A DNA stretch of 40,666 nucleotides from a virus (lineage: Duplodnaviria; Caudoviricetes). Location of the stretch: IMG/VR virus record IMGVR_UViG_3300029179_000010, positions 1 to 40,666 of that record. One strand, 5' to 3'. Made by a program: the position numbers and the translations under genes. Numbering within the stretch: the first letter of the stretch is position 1; every line of letters begins with the position of its first letter. Under the pieces are notes generated by a model. That model was not told the origin of the DNA, ran no database searches, and saw only the letters and a list, made by a program, of their open reading frames with translations. Below, one piece after another: positions 31,891 through 40,649 of this stretch.

Positions 31891-32489
31891 GTGTTCCTTA
31901 ATTGATTTGCGGCGGAACCTCCCTCTTTGCGTACAGAGGATACTCCCCGTGAACGCTTGCGGAGTTCCGCCAAGTCCTGACCGCCTACTGCTTGCCTCAA
32001 CACCTCGATGTCGTTTGACATTTTAGCCAGAAGTTCGGAAATTATTTTTATGTTTTCTAAACGCTGACGCATTGTCTCCTCGTCATCCTTTGCGCTGATT
32101 TTTATAGACCCCATAACCAACGACAATTCACGGTGCTTTGCGACCTTTACCTCCAGTTCGTCACCAAGGGCATCCGGCTCGTCTGCTTTAAAGAACTCCA
32201 CCGCTGTTTTGAACACATTCGTGTTGGGGATTTTGGAAATATCTTCAGCTAAAATGTCCGTAGGAACGCCGTAGTTCTCCAGCATCTTATGGACAGCTAA
32301 TGCACTGCGCCGGTTCTTCCCGTCGCCGTCTTTTTGGACTTTCATCGGGGAAAGGTGACTGCTCGTGTACAACAACATCAACAGCCCCGCCACCCCGTGC
32401 CTTTTATACAGATCGTTGTATTGCGGGACGGTTGTCATCCATGCAACGTCCGTAATTACACTATTAGCCGTTATTTTTGCAATAACCAT
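31887..32489 (-). CDS. Hypothetical protein, possibly terminase small subunit-like
   Basis: First gene of the late operon; VPQY...LY...SP motif and C-terminal coiled coil ending in RG; weak resemblance only. Confidence 0.4.
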   Translation of the reverse strand: MVIAKITANSVITDVAWMTTVPQYNDLYKRHGVAGLLMLLYTSSHLSPMKVQKDGDGKNRRSALAVHKMLENYGVPTDILAEDISKIPNTNVFKTAVEFFKADEPDALGDELEVKVAKHRELSLVMGSIKISAKDDEETMRQRLENIKIISELLAKMSNDIEVLRQAVGGQDLAELRKRSRGVSSVRKEGGSAANQLRNT

Positions 32490-32499
32490 AATTAGTGAC

Positions 32500-32517
32500 T
32501 ATTTTTGTGCAAAGATA
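32500..32517. promoter_or_regulatory. Adjacent opposite-strand Bacteroidota -7 elements between divergent genes
   Basis: TATTTTTG on + (32500-32507) and TATCTTTG on - (32510-32517) in the 52-nt gap. Confidence 0.65.
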
Positions 32518-34364: not shown

Positions 34365-34757
34365 TCAAAAGGGCAAATCTCCTTCTGCGGGAAGTGGCAT
34401 ATCTGCGCTGACCGGGGTGGCCGATTTCGAACCGGAATCCTTTTCAGCCTCCGTGAATGCACTTGGCTGCCCCGTGCCAAGCCAGTCAATCTTCCACGCA
34501 TTAAGCGAAATGAAATACTTTACTATTCCGGTCTTAGAGTCAGCCCATTCACGCCCGCGAATGTCAAAATGAATGCTTACGTCCGTTCCTTTGGCAGATT
34601 CTGTGACCAAATCTACGCGCTCGTTTACAAACTCAAACGCAATTTTCTGGGGGTACTGGTCATATGTCTCAATAACCACTTCGCGCTTGCGGAGCTTTTC
34701 GCTGATTTGAGTTACGGGGGATACAGCGATTACCGTGCCTTTAATTTGATTGCTCAT
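34365..34757 (-). CDS. DUF3127-type single-stranded DNA-binding protein
   Basis: KREVVIET..QYPQKIAFEF...VSIHFDIRGREW...YFISLNAWKI and acidic DLPF tail. Confidence 0.85.
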   Translation of the reverse strand: MSNQIKGTVIAVSPVTQISEKLRKREVVIETYDQYPQKIAFEFVNERVDLVTESAKGTDVSIHFDIRGREWADSKTGIVKYFISLNAWKIDWLGTGQPSAFTEAEKDSGSKSATPVSADMPLPAEGDLPF

Positions 34758-34774
34758 AAATGGTGTGTTTTGTG

Positions 34775-34782
34775 CAAAGTTA
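34775..34782 (-). promoter_or_regulatory. Bacteroidota -7 element (TAACTTTG) upstream of SSB
   Basis: Matches TAnnTTTG 17 nt before the ATG at 34757. Confidence 0.5.
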
Positions 34783-35799
34783 TAAAAATTTATTTTCATA
34801 TTCGTTGATTGCCTTAAATATTTGAAAAACGAGTTGCGGTACTACTGCATTTCCTGCCGCCTTTATGGTTTCGTTGCGCCATTTTGAAACGGTAATTCCG
34901 TCCAGTTTGGGGGGAACCCCATCATTTCCAATACAAACCGGTGATTGAGTCGGGAACTCTTCCCAATACCAACTGCCTCCCCTAAATTCATCCCGTATCC
35001 CTCCGATTGTCGGTTTTCGTTGCTTGTTGCCCTTGGAGTGGGTAGCAATTCCCTGTTCGCGTTGCGCATTATCCAGCCTGGAACTGAATCTCTGTCCAAC
35101 TGAGAGGGAGAAAATGTTCCGTTTTTCCCGTCTTGTGCGGATGGGGTTGGCAGCAGCACCAGTTTTTCCATTGTCGGCTCGTAACCGCTCATGATTTCCT
35201 GTGCCAATGTTCCGCTGTTTCCGCTGACTGGCTCTTTCTTCCCGCTGCTTATCATTCCATCCATCGCAGTGGGCGTTTTTATGAGCCACGAACCAAACTC
35301 TGTCTCTTCTGTGGGGCGCGCCGACACCGCAAGCTGGAAGTATATACGTTTGTACTTCGTACCCTTCAGCTTCCAGTTCAGCCTGCACCTCCTCAAAGAC
35401 CAATCCCCTGTTCCAATTAACAATTCCGAAAACGTTTTCCCCCACAATCCAGCGCGGCCTGAGCTCTCGTATAACTCTAAGCATTTCCGGCCAGAGGTGT
35501 CTATCATCGTCTTTTCCCTTTCTCTTTCCTGCAAGTGAATAGGGCTGACATGGGAATCCTCCTGACAAAACAATGTCGTCTGAATGCCAGGCTGTACCGT
35601 GCCTTTTTGTGAGTTCTTCATTGATTTTTCCATAAGTAAGGGTTTTTATATCGTCATGGTGGTAAGCATATGGCCAGTAGTACTCCAGTACACGTCGGCC
35701 AAAAGGGTTAATTTCGCAGCTTAGGATGTTTTCCCAGCGTGCCCACTGCGCGGCAAGGTCAAAGCCGCCAATACCTGAAAAAAGGGAAATGTGTTTCAT
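34780..35799 (-). CDS. C5-cytosine DNA methyltransferase, alpha polypeptide
   Basis: SLFSGIGG (I), GGFPCQ (IV), ENV (VI), HRRDRVW (VIII), GNAVV (X); motif IX absent from this frame. Confidence 0.92.
   Translation of the reverse strand: MKHISLFSGIGGFDLAAQWARWENILSCEINPFGRRVLEYYWPYAYHHDDIKTLTYGKINEELTKRHGTAWHSDDIVLSGGFPCQPYSLAGKRKGKDDDRHLWPEMLRVIRELRPRWIVGENVFGIVNWNRGLVFEEVQAELEAEGYEVQTYILPACGVGAPHRRDRVWFVAHKNAHCDGWNDKQREERASQRKQRNIGTGNHERLRADNGKTGAAANPIRTRREKRNIFSLSVGQRFSSRLDNAQREQGIATHSKGNKQRKPTIGGIRDEFRGGSWYWEEFPTQSPVCIGNDGVPPKLDGITVSKWRNETIKAAGNAVVPQLVFQIFKAINEYENKFL
34863..35633 (-). CDS. C5 MTase beta polypeptide nested in an alternative frame (M.EcoHK31I-like)
   Basis: 256 aa inside alpha; IKTP/LLPTP repeats; motif IX-like RLNHRFVLEMMGFPPNWT. 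Confidence 0.75.
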   Translation of the reverse strand: MEKSMKNSQKGTVQPGIQTTLFCQEDSHVSPIHLQEREREKTMIDTSGRKCLELYESSGRAGLWGKTFSELLIGTGDWSLRRCRLNWKLKGTKYKRIYFQLAVSARPTEETEFGSWLIKTPTAMDGMISSGKKEPVSGNSGTLAQEIMSGYEPTMEKLVLLPTPSAQDGKNGTFSPSQLDRDSVPGWIMRNANRELLPTPRATSNENRQSEGYGMNLGEAVGIGKSSRLNHRFVLEMMGFPPNWTELPFQNGATKP

Positions 35800-35809
35800 G
35801 GCTTTAATT

Positions 35810-36535
35810 TTAGAATAAGCGCCCTTGCGCAATGTGGTTCCTTACCCGCTTAATCCCGTCTTTGTAATAGTCGGAATCCAACTCGCAGCCCGTTAACTCA
35901 AAATCGTAATCATGGCACGCTATTGCAATGCTCATACTTCCTAAATGTGTGTCCAGTATCTTGTCGCCCGGTTTGGCGTATCTGTCCAATATCCATTTGT
36001 AAAGGGCTATGGGCTTTTGTGTGGGGTGAATGCGGCGTTCGATCTTTTTCATACTTCTTTCGGGAGTTGTAGGGGAAGCAAGTCTTTTTCCGACATTGAA
36101 CCCGCTGTATAGAAAAGTAAAGACCTCTTCATGCTCCATTAAAGAGCAATACGCTAATTCATACTTTTTAAACGATAAGTTTTCTGGAACCAATTTATCC
36201 CATCTTATTCGCCCGTTGGAAATATTTGGAATTTCATAATATTCAATCCCCCAGATAATTTGATTTTTAGATACTCGAAAAAGTTTGCTAAAATAACTTT
36301 CGTCTGGAACGTTGCAATCCCATTCAGATTTCTTATAAATCGTTTTTCTCGGCCTTAATCTTGTGCCGTTTTTTTGCAAAACGGTTGTTCGGTTCTCCTG
36401 AAGATATGCCATTTTAGAAACCCCGATCCCATACGGCGGATCAACCACCGCCAAGTCAAAATACTTATCCGGGTAACGTGACATAAGCTCCATATTGCCC
36501 TCGTTGGTTAATATTAGTTTGTCTGTTAGTTGCAT
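35810..36535 (-). CDS. N6-adenine/N4-cytosine DNA methyltransferase (beta class)
   Basis: VDPPYG, HPTQKP and LDTHLGSMS motifs. Confidence 0.92.
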   Translation of the reverse strand: MQLTDKLILTNEGNMELMSRYPDKYFDLAVVDPPYGIGVSKMAYLQENRTTVLQKNGTRLRPRKTIYKKSEWDCNVPDESYFSKLFRVSKNQIIWGIEYYEIPNISNGRIRWDKLVPENLSFKKYELAYCSLMEHEEVFTFLYSGFNVGKRLASPTTPERSMKKIERRIHPTQKPIALYKWILDRYAKPGDKILDTHLGSMSIAIACHDYDFELTGCELDSDYYKDGIKRVRNHIAQGRLF

Positions 36536-36547
36536 AGGGGTAGGGGG

Positions 36548-37534
36548 TTAAAAAGATAAACTGACTGTTCCGTTTTTTTTGGCATAGTAGGCTTTTTCAT
36601 TGCTGTGCTTAAACTCTTCCCATGATACGAATTGGTCATACCTACGAATAACCCAGCGCTGAAATTTCTTTAGCTCTTTAAAGTCTTTTGAATCGCTGTA
36701 AACCATCGGGAACGGCAAAAGACCCATTCCTTTCATTGTTTCATAGCGATACCAAATATCAGCAAACGTTTCATCTTTCCAATAGCCGCAAAGAAAGTAC
36801 ACCAATATGTGTGACGGTCGTACCCCTGCATTCAGCAAATACCCCACTCCCTTTTTAAATATCCCTTCGTCGCGTTTATTATCCCAAGCCGTGTATATCC
36901 GTTTTGCCTTAAACTGGTCATCGCGATATTTCAGTGTTGCCAACTCACTCGCCTGTTCCTGATTTATCAATCGGACATTTATCCCCTGATTGATACAAAT
37001 TTCAAAATTGCCCTCTCTGATTTCATTGCACTTCGCCTTCCAATTGGGGTCTCCAAAGAAATCGTTGTCCAATAAGTGTATTTTTTTAGGGTACGGCTCC
37101 CCGCGCCAAATGTCATATATGCTTCTCGATGTATTTACCTTACCCTCTTTTTTGGGTACTACGCAAAATTTACACGCAAGCCTGCATCCCCGCTGAGAAA
37201 ATCCAATTGAGTGTTCAAATTCGGGATAGGTTGAATAGTCGTAAAACTCGTACTCCCCGATATTCAACATATCTTCTACCCGGTACGACATATTTTCAGA
37301 GCCTGTACCGCCAACAACTGCGTTAGGGAATGCTTCTTTAAACGCCCTTATCTTCTTCTCGGATGTTGAAAAAATAGCACTACCTAAAACTAAATCGTAG
37401 TCCGGTTCAAACATGTTTCTGTGAATTGACCTTTCAAAAAATACCTCATGCCCATTACTTTTGTAATAGTGCGATAGCTTCATTAATGCCAGATTAGGCA
37501 AGCTGCCATCTATTTGTGTAAGTCTGATTTTCAT
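36548..37534 (-). CDS. Radical SAM protein with B12-binding-like N-terminal domain
   Basis: PNLALMKL, VVGGTG, RGCRLACKFC (CxxxCxxC) and LLDNDF motifs. Confidence 0.85.
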   Translation of the reverse strand: MKIRLTQIDGSLPNLALMKLSHYYKSNGHEVFFERSIHRNMFEPDYDLVLGSAIFSTSEKKIRAFKEAFPNAVVGGTGSENMSYRVEDMLNIGEYEFYDYSTYPEFEHSIGFSQRGCRLACKFCVVPKKEGKVNTSRSIYDIWRGEPYPKKIHLLDNDFFGDPNWKAKCNEIREGNFEICINQGINVRLINQEQASELATLKYRDDQFKAKRIYTAWDNKRDEGIFKKGVGYLLNAGVRPSHILVYFLCGYWKDETFADIWYRYETMKGMGLLPFPMVYSDSKDFKELKKFQRWVIRRYDQFVSWEEFKHSNEKAYYAKKNGTVSLSF

Positions 37535-37545
37535 AAAATTAGGGC

Positions 37546-38949
37546 TTAAAAAGGCATATCGTCTTGTTCCGGGTATGCCATTTGACTGGGCGTTCGTTGT
37601 CCATGACCAAACGGGTGAGCAGGCGGGAAATCACATATTTTGTTTGTCGGCCCGTGCCAGCGGATGGGAATGTGCCCAACCGCGCCGTTCCTGTTTTTGT
37701 AAACCAACAACTCCATTACGTCAATCAATGAAACACCTTGCTCATCTTTGTCAATCCCGTAGTAGGAAGGGCGGTGCGTAAACATCACTATGTCCGCATC
37801 CTGCTCTATCTGCCCCGATTCCCGCAAGTCCGATAACTGTGGGCGCTTTGATCCACCGCGTATCTCCGAAGAACGGTTTAACTGCGATAACTGCACAACC
37901 GGGATGCTCAATTCTTTTGCCAGTCCCTTGCTTTCCGTTGAAATCTTACCCACGCGGTCATTGTTCGTCATGCGGCTTTCATACGTCAGCAACTGGAGGT
38001 AATCCACAAAGACTATCTGGCAGCCGTGAACCCTGACCATGCGCCGGATTTCCCTTTTTATGTTCGGCCAGTGCATCGCCTCGCTTATGAAAAAGCCGCT
38101 TTTCTTTAAATCGTCATAGGTAGAATCCATTAATGCAATGTCAGCGTTGCTAAGAGAGCCAAGTCGCAAATGGCTTTGATCTAATTCCGCCCGTTGGCAA
38201 ACCGCCCGGTGAGCAAGCTGGATAGCGGACATTTCCGCCGAAATAAAACCAACCCGCGTACCCTGCTGCGCCATGTTTGTTGCCATTTGTAGCGCCAATG
38301 CGGTTTTTCCCTGTGATGGGCGACCTCCGATAATTACCAAGTCGCCCGCCTGAAAGCCAAAGAAATGCCTGTCAATAGCGTGTATGCCCGTCAGGATGCC
38401 CGTGTCCGGCATAATGCCGTTCCTTACCGACAATATTCGCGCCGTACTCAACTCGTGCGCTTTCTGGAATACTTCGAGCGCCGTAAACAAAGATGTTGCG
38501 GAAAACGAATTTGACACCGCCATCAATTCCTGCCCTAAGCGCTCGTATTCGGTCCTGTCTTCTGCAAGTATAGCTGACTTTTGTGAATCGAGCAAGTCTA
38601 AAATCTTTAAATTCACGGCGTAGTCTGTCAGCTTTTTGACATGCTCCTTCACAAATTCCGCCGTAGTGCTGACATACGCGCCGGCCGGACGGATATGGTC
38701 CTTAAATTCGTGAAGCAGTTCCGGGGAAGCAGGAAACGCCACCTCTATTGCCGTGTGCAGGTTCCCGTAGGATGCGTGTGCGCCCTTGTCGTGGTATTCC
38801 ATAAGCACCTTAACGCAAAACCGAGTAAGCGGGCTGTTAAAGATTTCCGGGAATAAATCCACGCGGTTTTCCTCCATAATTGCCCGGCTTGCGATAAGCC
38901 CGCGAATGATGCCCCATTCAGAGACCACCGTCTTGTTATGCTTTGACAT
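37546..38949 (-). CDS. dnaB: Replicative DNA helicase
   Basis: GGRPSQGKT, SAEM, DYLQL, SQLNR, DLRESGQIEQDAD and KNRNG motifs. Confidence 0.96.
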   Translation of the reverse strand: MSKHNKTVVSEWGIIRGLIASRAIMEENRVDLFPEIFNSPLTRFCVKVLMEYHDKGAHASYGNLHTAIEVAFPASPELLHEFKDHIRPAGAYVSTTAEFVKEHVKKLTDYAVNLKILDLLDSQKSAILAEDRTEYERLGQELMAVSNSFSATSLFTALEVFQKAHELSTARILSVRNGIMPDTGILTGIHAIDRHFFGFQAGDLVIIGGRPSQGKTALALQMATNMAQQGTRVGFISAEMSAIQLAHRAVCQRAELDQSHLRLGSLSNADIALMDSTYDDLKKSGFFISEAMHWPNIKREIRRMVRVHGCQIVFVDYLQLLTYESRMTNNDRVGKISTESKGLAKELSIPVVQLSQLNRSSEIRGGSKRPQLSDLRESGQIEQDADIVMFTHRPSYYGIDKDEQGVSLIDVMELLVYKNRNGAVGHIPIRWHGPTNKICDFPPAHPFGHGQRTPSQMAYPEQDDMPF

Positions 38950-39532
38950 CTTTTTTCAGGTTTAGTGATTTGAAAAATTCTACAATCTCCTGTATCTTCT
39001 CCCGTGCCGTATCATCCCCTATGTTGTCCATAACGTACTTCATTTCCTCCCACACCGCACGCCTGCCCTTTGTTCTCATTTCTCCTAACCACTTGTCGCG
39101 TAAAACCGCATACACATCCAAGCTCTTGCCGGAATCTAAAAGGTCCATCACCGCCGCCTGAACGTTTATCTCCATTTCTATCCCGTAGTCCGTTATCGGG
39201 GTAGGGCGTACCCAATACCCGGCGGGAAGCGTCTTTTCTAAGAAAAGGTAAAGCCGGACGCGAAAGGAATGTACAAACTCCGAAGCCAGAAACAAATCCG
39301 CCGACGTGGGATTTCGGTTCGGGCAAAACCGTTTCAGGAAAATCCCTATCAAAGTAGCAAATTCATCCTGCTCAATATCCGGGTAAGTAAGGAACATTTC
39401 GTACATCACTACCTCCCGGCGATACTCCGCCTCCGACATTTTACCGGATAGCCGCCTGCTTGCGTAAAAACGCCGCGCCGCTTCAAAATTATCGTTGCTT
39501 GTGAGGGTGTGTTCCATTTTAGGAGAGATCAT
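38936..39532 (-). CDS. Hypothetical protein between initiator and helicase
   Basis: Tiles the operon; no motif recognised. Confidence 0.6.
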   Translation of the reverse strand: MISPKMEHTLTSNDNFEAARRFYASRRLSGKMSEAEYRREVVMYEMFLTYPDIEQDEFATLIGIFLKRFCPNRNPTSADLFLASEFVHSFRVRLYLFLEKTLPAGYWVRPTPITDYGIEMEINVQAAVMDLLDSGKSLDVYAVLRDKWLGEMRTKGRRAVWEEMKYVMDNIGDDTAREKIQEIVEFFKSLNLKKDVKA

Positions 39533-39543
39533 CGAATGTAGGG

Positions 39544-40341
39544 CTATTTTTTCGCTCCGTGCATCTTATCCCAGAATGCAGCCGCGTCGTTGCCGGACGA
39601 GGGAAGGGGGCGCACGGAATTGGGGTTGGAAGCTTCTTTTTCGGCATTGAAGGACAAACGTAGCCAGCGCTCGTAATTCACTTCCGTATCGCTGAAGATC
39701 GCTCCCTGATAATCGTTAGATGTAGCCGTTTCCACAAGTAGAGTGGCAAACTCAACCCGAAAAGCAGATAAGCGCTTCAACGTAAGCAAATGCGCTGACT
39801 GCTCTTTCTTGTATTGCTTCCTTAACTTCATCCAATTAACCCATGCTTCCCTGAACTCCGAAGTATTCAAACTTTCCGGTAAGGGAAGGTTGCCGTTTTC
39901 TGCGGCAGCTTCAGCGCCGCTTTTCTTTTTACTTTCTTTTGTTATTATTATTAATTCCTTATTACTACTTAACTCTATATTACTATATATGCCGGTTTCC
40001 CGATTTTCGGAAAAACCGATAATCGGAAAACCGGTGTTTCGGTGGTCGGGCGATTCAATGACAACCCACTCTTTGCCGCCCAATTTTCCGTCCGCTCCGC
40101 GAACAGAACGCAACTCTGCATAGCCCAAATCCCGTAATTCTTTCAATGCACTTCGGATAGCTGTAATGCCATCATGGGAGGCATTCCTTAACTCCGCCAC
40201 GCTCACCGTCCAGTTATCAGGTTTAGATAGCAAATAAGCCAACACGCCCCGCGCCCTAAAAGACAGGCGGCTGTCACTGATGGTTTCGCTGTCAATCATG
40301 ACAAAGGGGTTGTTCCGGCGGGATACTCGTAAAATACTCAT
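39544..40341 (-). CDS. Phage replication initiator (N-terminal HTH, lambda O-like layout)
   Basis: NPFVMID...DSRLSFRARGVLAYLLSKPDNW...AIRSALKELRDLGY; repetitive linker; FREAWVNWMKLRK domain; start moved to ATG 40341. Confidence 0.82.
   Translation of the reverse strand: MSILRVSRRNNPFVMIDSETISDSRLSFRARGVLAYLLSKPDNWTVSVAELRNASHDGITAIRSALKELRDLGYAELRSVRGADGKLGGKEWVVIESPDHRNTGFPIIGFSENRETGIYSNIELSSNKELIIITKESKKKSGAEAAAENGNLPLPESLNTSEFREAWVNWMKLRKQYKKEQSAHLLTLKRLSAFRVEFATLLVETATSNDYQGAIFSDTEVNYERWLRLSFNAEKEASNPNSVRPLPSSGNDAAAFWDKMHGAKK
39920..40043. other. Putative replication origin inside the initiator gene
   Basis: CGG-N4/5-CCG units at 39993, 40008 and 40024 beside an AT-rich tract at about 39920-39990. 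Confidence 0.6.
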
Positions 40342-40351
40342 TTTGTACAAA

Positions 40352-40448
40352 TTAAAAACCCGGTCGGGTGTACATGGCGCGCACACCCATAACCGGGATT
40401 GTTACCTTTTTAAAGGTCAGTTTTCGTGGAGCGCCATTCCACGAAAAC
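40352..40448 (-). ncRNA. Structured 5' leader: three hairpins, kissing loop and terminator
   Basis: Stem 40420-40430/40438-40448 with loop AUGGCGC; stem 40359-40373/40381-40397 with loop GCGCCAU then UUUUU. Confidence 0.7.
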
Positions 40449-40460
40449 ATTATGTTGATG

Positions 40461-40468
40461 CAAATATA
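40461..40468 (-). promoter_or_regulatory. Bacteroidota -7 element (TATATTTG) for the replication operon
   Basis: Matches TAnnTTTG, 12 nt upstream of hairpin 1. Confidence 0.65.
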
Positions 40469-40508
40469 AATAAAAAGAATCTATCCAAGCAAATAATCAG
40501 TCTCTTTT

Positions 40509-40649
40509 TTAAACCGGTTTCACCCGGCAGCCTTCCGCGTAGTCGAAGGCGGCGTTGACCTTTTGGAGGTAGTCCGCGCCTACGGGTCTGTCGCCGTACT
40601 TTTCCGAAATGGCCGCGATGGCCTCGGCGCGGGTCAGGTTCTGGCAACC
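40509..40649 (-). CDS. 3' end of a paralogue of the left-end LRR gene (5'-truncated)
   Basis: GCQNLTRAEAIAAISEKYGDRPVGADYLQKVNAAFDYAEGCRVKPV*; frame absent from the ORF track. Confidence 0.85.
   Translation of the reverse strand, partial: GCQNLTRAEAIAAISEKYGDRPVGADYLQKVNAAFDYAEGCRVKPV

Follow-up and report, generated by a model that had tools for sequence, protein, structure and literature searches.

Complementary hairpin loops in the leader of a phage replication operon: a recurrent design and a predicted kissing-loop attenuator

The window analysed here, the whole 40,666-nt stretch of virus record IMGVR_UViG_3300029179_000010, carries on its minus strand a short leader in which the loop of the first hairpin is the exact complement of the tip of a terminator-type hairpin just before a replication initiator gene. 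Judged by sequence comparison, this structured leader design is real in this phage, and the window holds a GC-rich and unusually clean example of it. The explanation that we favour, with moderate confidence, is an attenuator: the two tips would pair in cis and hinder closure of the predicted terminator, so that a fraction of the polymerases would read on into the initiator-DnaB operon.

The leader, its operon and the phage

Protein family matches identify the window as a tailed phage with crAss-like virion genes. The Bacteroidota-type promoter of the leader and a DUF3127 gene in the operon suggest a host among the Bacteroidota. The leader elements and the genes behind them are as follows.

40461..40493, minus strand: match to the Bacteroidota housekeeping promoter, TTTG-N21-TATATTTG, with the -33 box at 40493-40490, a 21-nt spacer and the -7 box at 40468-40461
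40352..40450, minus strand: 32-codon ORF spanning the element (ORF list), unconserved
40420..40448, minus strand: hairpin 1, a perfect 11-bp stem (folding and sequence)
40431..40437, minus strand: loop 1, AUGGCGC, predicted kissing partner of the terminator tip (sequence)
40404..40417, minus strand: hairpin 2, 5 bp, in the linker (folding)
40359..40397, minus strand: hairpin 3, terminator-type, with a 6-bp lower stem, a small internal loop and an 8-bp upper stem containing one G-U pair
40374..40380, minus strand: loop 3, GCGCCAU, exact complement of loop 1 (sequence)
40349..40358, minus strand: U tract, 8 of 10 nt U, directly 3' of hairpin 3, the first five U being 40358-40354
39544..40341, minus strand: HTH replication initiator, 265 aa from ATG 40341 (phrog_4707, E 5e-20)
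38936..39532, minus strand: orphan gene of 198 aa between initiator and helicase (only a self-hit)
37546..38949, minus strand: DnaB-like replicative helicase (PF03796, E 5e-76)
34365..37534, minus strand: remainder of the likely operon, with a radical SAM protein, DNA methyltransferases and a DUF3127 single-strand binding protein

The original prediction had described this element from the letters alone, and its anatomy was confirmed by sequence and folding. All three hairpins are present on the minus strand, the two 7-nt loops (40437-40431 and 40380-40374) are exact reverse complements whose pairing ends at the loops without extending into the stems, and five U (40358-40354) are followed after 12 nt by the initiator ATG at 40341, 17 nt behind the end of the hairpin 3 stem. 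The 32-codon ORF at 40450-40352 exists as well, but is probably incidental. The preference for the minus strand was also borne out, both by the G-U pair in the upper stem and by the stability of hairpin 3, which is -25.5 kcal/mol on this strand and -19.4 kcal/mol on the other. The promoter-like element turned out fuller than first noted: it is a complete -33/-7 match to the Bacteroidota consensus (PMC6847099, in part), one of six full matches in the window. As the -7 box occupies positions -12 to -5 (PMC9723704, in part), the transcription start would lie at 40456, and termination at the U tract, the predicted 3' end, would yield an RNA of about 103-106 nt.

Homologues of the initiator align from ATG 40341, in agreement with this start; its HTH_36 match was below the cut-off. 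The genes follow the leader in the order initiator, orphan, DnaB, radical SAM protein, methyltransferases and single-strand binding protein. No close relative of the phage was found via the initiator in viral contigs or genomes, nor via searches with DnaB or the 198-aa gene, and the leader DNA has no close relative among cultured phages. Among the window proteins scanned no integrase was found, the contig being incomplete at the leader end.

The element itself is matched without differences by one contig in each of two sequencing runs (depth 161 and 174), possibly the source of the window. The last 130 nt of the window are unreliable: contigs of two sequencing runs carry other letters beyond 40651 and branch at 40534-40563. 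Identical stretches of 22 nt stand in inverted orientation at both contig ends (1-22 and 40645-40666); we take them to be probably a library amplification primer and not a terminal repeat.

Some further features of the contig may be mentioned here. The 40.7-kb contig combines a crAss-like virion module (muzzle, ring proteins and a weak capsid match, 6713-31890) with an initiator-DnaB module of lambdoid type. Two long frames overlap on the minus strand (34780-35832 and 34863-35633), with methyltransferase matches to PF00145 (E 4e-40) and phrog_1008 (E 4e-22); possibly they represent an overprinted subunit. Inside the initiator gene, at 40042-39996 (minus strand), clustered short direct and inverted repeats are followed by an AT-rich stretch, and this is likely the replication origin. 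Divergent Bacteroidota promoter-like boxes at 32476-32507 (plus strand) and near 32517 (minus strand) occupy the gap that separates the virion genes from a plus-strand orphan of 323 aa. Within the muzzle gene, 27162-27127 (minus strand), two -7 boxes occur in tandem, one of them belonging to a full promoter match.

The 141-nt region folds with -45.9 kcal/mol (z -4.17), and none of 200 shuffles was equally good. The minimum-energy fold adds a G-U pair that closes the tip and leaves a 5-nt loop; a fold with both 7-mers open lies just 0.3 kcal/mol above it. Hairpin 2 is favoured by 1.4 kcal/mol over an alternative 5-bp helix of the linker with the terminator base, which was dropped. Two random 7-mers of the window are complementary with P about 1e-4. 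With a relaxed architecture scanner, shuffling the window leader gave 325 positives in 100,393 sequences and shuffling pooled promoter-like sites gave 102 in 99,270, so that about 0.04-0.14 chance matches are expected for the 43 promoter-like sites of the window. Taken by itself, the window sequence makes a chance origin unlikely yet not impossible; it is the family evidence that settles the matter.

A family of leaders with the same design

A scan of 2,057 promoter-like sites in the window and the fetched loci gave eight positives, against a chance expectation of about two. Five of the eight show the clean design, namely the window, L340, L400, the cultured phage morran9-1 and L345. The leaders of L340 and L400 precede a Prim-Pol/DUF3987 primase; in L345 the design occurs without any gene behind it. 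A search with this primase gave 80 loci, three of them without upstream DNA, and in the remaining 77 the scanner detected the design 64 times. For a non-circular test, promoter and terminator were set without regard to loop pairing; both were present in 73 of the 77 loci, which were collapsed at 85% identity. By this loop-blind definition the tip matches its own 5' region over at least 6 nt in 26 of the 27 distinct primase leaders. With the addition of the window, L493 and L375, which had been picked by complementarity or by eye, the own tip matches in 29/30 leaders as compared with 55/870 cross-pairs. A covariance model without a kiss term retrieved 49 copies, with an own match in 43 of them versus 132 of 2322 cross-pairs.

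The complementarity is maintained while the words change. Fifteen leaders, hand-picked for alignability, were aligned with MAFFT, which is blind to structure, and the structure was assigned after the alignment had been viewed; 20 of the 25 pairs change on both sides, including six of the seven kissing pairs. None of 500 shuffles reached that covariation, and slid structures scored far lower. Two leaders, L499 and L504, have a change in loop 1 without compensation. The loop words change freely, to the point of exchanged polarity (hairpin 1 reads GTAGAC in L519 and GTCTAC in L549), and the spacing of the loops is constant within 44-63 nt, with 57 in the window. Columns with at least 90% conservation among the 49 aligned copies comprise only the promoter, one basal C-G pair and the U tract, and no loop column is among them. 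The terminator hairpins are less stable on the opposite strand in 27 of 30 leaders and contain 42 G-U among 489 pairs. Thus the sense orientation corresponds to that seen on the minus strand of the window, and the acting molecule is probably RNA. A start codon follows after 7-48 nt in 29 of the 30 leaders (script count). Seven of them, the window included, have a hairpin in the linker; the negative correlation of linker with arm length is partly built in and hence was not used.

The window leader fits this design in its promoter, hairpin 1, loop spacing, complementary terminator tip, U tract and start codon. Three models built without the window gave its element 8.4, 14.7 and 20.4 bits (E 0.11, 2.1 and 0.33). 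The element ranked second of 28 matches in the first, where it was the only near full-length one, first of three in the second and first of two in the third. The best-scoring model aligns it end to end, with the next match at 13.2 bits, although the E of 0.33 for the element is weak. These comparisons demonstrate a common design; common descent is unproven by sequence. The sampled family has a GC content of about 30% and the window 48%, and the window tip sits on an 8-bp upper stem, in contrast to the family, most members of which have a larger internal loop capped by 3-4 bp. Searches gave no close relative of the window leader, so the evidence from covariation derives from other phages.

Among all explanations considered, we give least credence to a plain leaky terminator whose loops match by chance, or to DNA hairpins of an origin. 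The lack of a close homologue and the 0.3% of leader shuffles on which the relaxed scanner is positive would fit such an explanation. Yet the tips match over 7/7 positions at family spacing, the end-to-end alignment is the best match of the family model in the window, the hairpins are strand-asymmetric, and origin-like repeats lie elsewhere, inside the initiator gene.

Leaders of homologous initiators, for which a test of loop covariation had been proposed, show the design in part. The 243 loci found with the initiator include 231 with enough upstream DNA, 123 of them distinct, and in 26 of these a terminator-like hairpin precedes the gene. Its tip region matches the own upstream sequence over at least 7 nt in nine of the 26, compared with 38/650 cross-pairs. 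Inspection of the nine revealed two clear two-hairpin kisses (L426, L127), three ambiguous cases (L124, L297, L106) and four long helices or other folds; complementary loops are therefore clear in only two of the 123 distinct leaders. An earlier, strict scanner had given 0/80 for leaders of initiator homologues; it was too strict and overlooked L127. Since L426 and L127 have no Bacteroidota box, the design may reach other hosts. Further initiator operons with the design are those of L396 and phi18:3.

The initiator matched in eight of 401 Bacteroidota genomes, with the design in none of the eight loci, and a search of 151 genomes with model R2 (25 candidates scored in each) gave one match, an already known phage-like contig. 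Two pattern scans on the loop words of the window (95 and 77 loci) showed no instance of the design among the matches listed. A different arrangement was seen in L188 and L229 (about 2001-2097), where a Bacteroidota promoter box is followed by two interleaved complementary pairs that contain the 7-mers of the window, possibly a pseudoknot.

The design is also present in cultured phages. The region is matched by 46 records of Baltic Flavobacterium phages, with three compensated tip alleles in four records, in addition to morran9-1. Cellulophaga phage phi19:1 carries the design, and so does phi18:3, by eye and by model. The leader of phi18:3 lies at 3183-3068 on the minus strand of KC821620, and that of morran9-1 runs from 14178 in MN812219; no convincing copy was found by the scanner in Flavobacterium phage Fpv5 or Nonlabens phage P12024L. 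Seven contigs have two or three copies each, 15 in total, and each copy has its own word. The genes behind the leaders encode primases, initiators, recombination proteins, ParB-methylases, HNH proteins and others. The proposal that the leader gates the replication initiator thus holds in so far as the window leader heads the initiator-DnaB operon, but it is too narrow for a module which also precedes primase, recombination, methylase and HNH genes. According to part of PMC7077304, the mumin-type phages (there including morran and lillamy) are lytic only, and lysogeny genes were not found.

Several observations concern the surroundings of individual leaders. In the Baltic phages L580-L583 the loop allele follows the downstream module, with one word type before a primase module and another before a helicase module. 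At L550:739, L550:5089, L523:1261 and L582:542 an endonuclease-like gene has a promoter and a kissing leader to itself; the copy in L581 precedes a NUMOD4/HNH gene, and the one at L523:1261 has a third site at the start codon. The primases of L340 and L400 are 98.8% identical, whereas the origin-like repeats upstream of their leaders differ in sequence (L340:11750-11930, L400:2450-2630); further primase loci have other repeat units. In morran9-1 an Rfam DUF805b match lies upstream of gp040 (L493:12838-12872).

Predicted mechanism and alternatives

The mechanism that we propose has the following course. The host polymerase would start near 40456, as judged from the consensus match. Hairpin 1 is predicted to fold first and to present loop 1; after some 57 nt more, folding of the hairpin 3 upper stem would expose loop 3 before the lower stem closes. 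The loops would then kiss in cis, a prediction with which the family covariation and the constant spacing agree. With the kiss formed, the linker would have to span both helices, the terminator base at the U tract would close late, and the polymerase would read through, as in the guanidine-IV riboswitch; should the terminator prevail, the polymerase would release an RNA of about 103 nt. Because the leaders showed no conservation of a pocket, a peptide or an antisense promoter, the default would be a kinetic race, with Mg2+, the speed of the polymerase or Nus factors of the host setting its course, and its outcome would be a dosing of DNA-metabolism genes during lytic growth.

Folding of the growing transcript agrees with this order of events, loop 3 being out at 40366 and the lower stem closed at 40359. 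The lower stem contributes -10.7 kcal/mol, the 7-bp loop duplex at most -11.1 kcal/mol; with energies so similar, the two could compete. Rough geometry indicates that a stretched linker spans the kiss on a complete terminator in 26/26 leaders with a 120-degree bend and in 24/26 with a straight one. Within this model, geometry would not force kiss and terminator to exclude each other, and the reach of the window linker would, by estimate, be borderline if hairpin 2 stays folded. For guanidine-IV a race has been described in which the kiss hinders the complete terminator, while growth of the terminator shortens the linker and hinders the kiss (PMC11611296, in part); hindrance of this terminator by the kissing loop had been proposed earlier (PMC7736828). 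That the kiss would be the ON state draws on this analogy and on a subtype of three of the 30 leaders, in which the tip can also pair beside the start codon. There the kiss would open the way for translation, in keeping with kiss = ON.

Of the attenuator that had originally been inferred, the structured leader, the maintained loop-loop complementarity and the terminator-type hairpin before the operon were upheld. This was not the case for a ribosome, a separate antisense RNA or immunity as general features of the design. Control by a ribosome on the 32-codon uORF would have in its favour that both loops lie within the frame, whose stop falls in the U tract. But a spanning ORF exists in one of the 30 leaders, that of the window, and its AUG lies 6 nt from the presumed start, with its G opening the 11-bp stem; we hold this explanation to be exceedingly improbable, only a little less so than a chance match. 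A separately transcribed antisense RNA receives no support either, as an antisense promoter match is found in 2/30 leaders and not in the window, at a background of 11.7%, other promoter types being possible. The conservation results likewise count against a small-molecule pocket and an immunity arms race.

A distinctly less probable alternative to pairing in cis is self-repression in trans. In this case the released short RNA with its two free tips would bind nascent leaders of the same word and promote their termination, acting as a timer, a copy-number sensor or a means to exclude co-infecting phages with the same word, like P4 CI. Such variants would be compatible with, and come on top of, the cis mechanism. 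The different words of the copies in all seven multi-copy contigs, the rare cross-pairing between phages (55/870) and the three compensated alleles in near-identical cultured phages would fit this alternative, as would the precedent of the P4 CI RNA, which derives from a leader, pairs and causes termination (PMC4825925, in part). Unrelated copies, however, differ in word by chance anyway. Among close relatives the kissing positions differ at 4/226 (17 pairs with at least 90% identity) and 2/66 (five pairs with 75-90%), hairpin 1 at 9/292 and 2/90 and the terminator stem at 5/570 and 22/178 in the same identity classes, so the tips diverge no faster than the stems in close pairs. Together with the description of the cultured carriers as lytic only (PMC7077304, in part), this would speak against P4/P1-type immunity. 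Finally, the constant spacing favours contact in cis, which needs it, whereas contact in trans does not. The same low probability applies to the form in which the attenuator needs neither ligand nor protein and its own terminated RNA represses same-word leaders only. If it were true, lytic phages would own a number of counters, each orthogonal to the others, which would switch off genes for replication, recombination and homing endonucleases with increasing genome copy number, and the terminated RNAs could exclude co-infecting kin.

It seems unlikely that the kiss is a shape read by a protein or by RNA polymerase as an antitermination signal, which would switch all leader copies in a genome together. 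HK022 put and the Bacillus EAR element are antitermination signals. In one phage a number of early promoters are each followed directly by a copy, the words being unrelated and the shape common, and seven of 30 terminators contain a loop-E-like internal loop. Yet the window has no loop-E motif, the U tract follows directly on the hairpin as in a terminator, and conservation of 90% is limited to the promoter, one basal C-G pair and the U tract. Hardly more attractive, and if anything slightly less so, is the notion that the short RNA itself is the product, compacted and stabilised by the kiss, with the downstream genes living on leak. Geometry permits a kiss on the complete terminator, and L345 has no gene to regulate behind its leader. 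On the other hand, 29/30 leaders have a start codon within 7-48 nt, the downstream genes consistently belong to DNA metabolism, and no conserved sequence in the 49 copies hints at a common target.

Mainly translational control, with a kiss that decides on access to the initiation region near the hairpin, appears very unlikely. It could build on the tuning of Flavobacterium initiation by structure from -20 to +20 (PMC6847099, in part), on the 17 nt between stem and ATG in the window and on the third site in 3/30 leaders. But the window has no such site (best match 3 nt), and the U tract is conserved.

Relation to known systems

In agreement with the original prediction, the element is not a named Rfam family: the window has no gathering-score match in Rfam 15, only weak chance matches. 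Thirteen family loci gave nothing but the unrelated DUF805b match outside the leader, and three loci searched in E-value mode gave no match on the leader. The closest working model would be the guanidine-IV kissing-loop antiterminator (GGAM-1; PMC7736828; PMC11611296, in part), which likewise has a 5' hairpin loop that kisses the terminator loop, a flexible linker, a U tract and a gene behind, and reaches its ON state without strand exchange. The pairing of a 5' loop with the terminator loop is supported in the phage leaders by complementarity and covariation. Guanidine-IV, however, needs highly conserved loop nucleotides that form the pocket (PMC7736828), which the 49 phage copies do not have, and it precedes sugE-type exporter or related genes, not initiator, primase, HNH and methylase genes. 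Unlike in guanidine-IV, the phage words differ freely from leader to leader, and their polarity can be exchanged between the hairpins. The mechanism may be like that of guanidine-IV, while pocket and genes argue against membership; comparison with P4/c4 argues against membership there, too.

The immunity leader of P4 (seqA, CI RNA, seqC; PMC4825925, in part) resembles the phage leaders in its position before replication genes, in premature termination, as predicted for the latter, and in short loop complementarity. The third site at the start codon in 3/30 leaders is a further likeness to P4/c4. The c4 RNA of P1/P7 (Rfam RF01695) is an immunity RNA with the same kind of mechanism, and loop 1 presumably resembles the c4/CI loop word. 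The window leader, however, has no cloverleaf by folding or Rfam, too little space for two targets with an excised RNA between them and neither a third site nor a kil/icd-type gene, and the cultured carriers are described as lytic. Leader RNA structure also limits the initiator in plasmid rep control, as in the IncI/IncB rep pseudoknot and the antisense attenuators of pT181/pIP501. These systems share with the phage leaders a structure before the initiator and, as predicted here, an activating long-range pairing of a hairpin loop, but the phage leaders have no conserved antisense promoter or leader peptide, and their loop partner is the terminator tip.

Three published candidate phage RNAs, DNAVirus_187, _4940 and _4548, lie at most 25 nt ahead of DUF1376/DUF4373 or PriCT_1/VirE_N/DUF3987 genes, the first two coming from aquatic phages (PMC10690425, in part). 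They measure 49-85 nt, are flagged as having no terminator and, in that part of the source, come without a kiss or mechanism; our comparison is by description only. They could be parts of the kissing-leader family, in which case the motif may already be partly catalogued, albeit without the kiss. Apart from this possible overlap, the leader design appears to be uncatalogued. Such a motif is absent from Table 1 and main-text parts of PMC2864571 and from part of PMC5737381, and no description of the element was found in literature in which subscription journals are thinly covered.

Kiss-hindered termination has been described for a ligand-binding riboswitch (PMC7736828; PMC11611296, in part); here the same geometry would occur with freely changing words, ahead of replication genes. 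This points to a common, uncatalogued route by which phages would dose DNA-metabolism genes, used in many aquatic phages and with several copies per genome. The natural compensated alleles in cultured Flavobacterium and Cellulophaga phages make the design testable, and its orthogonal words are a potential set of RNA parts for engineering of Bacteroidota. A separate group of longer leaders was seen before initiator- or antirepressor-like genes in L107/L108, L099, L106 and L138, in which upstream loop words match words in a large terminator-like tip; these we take to be c4-like.
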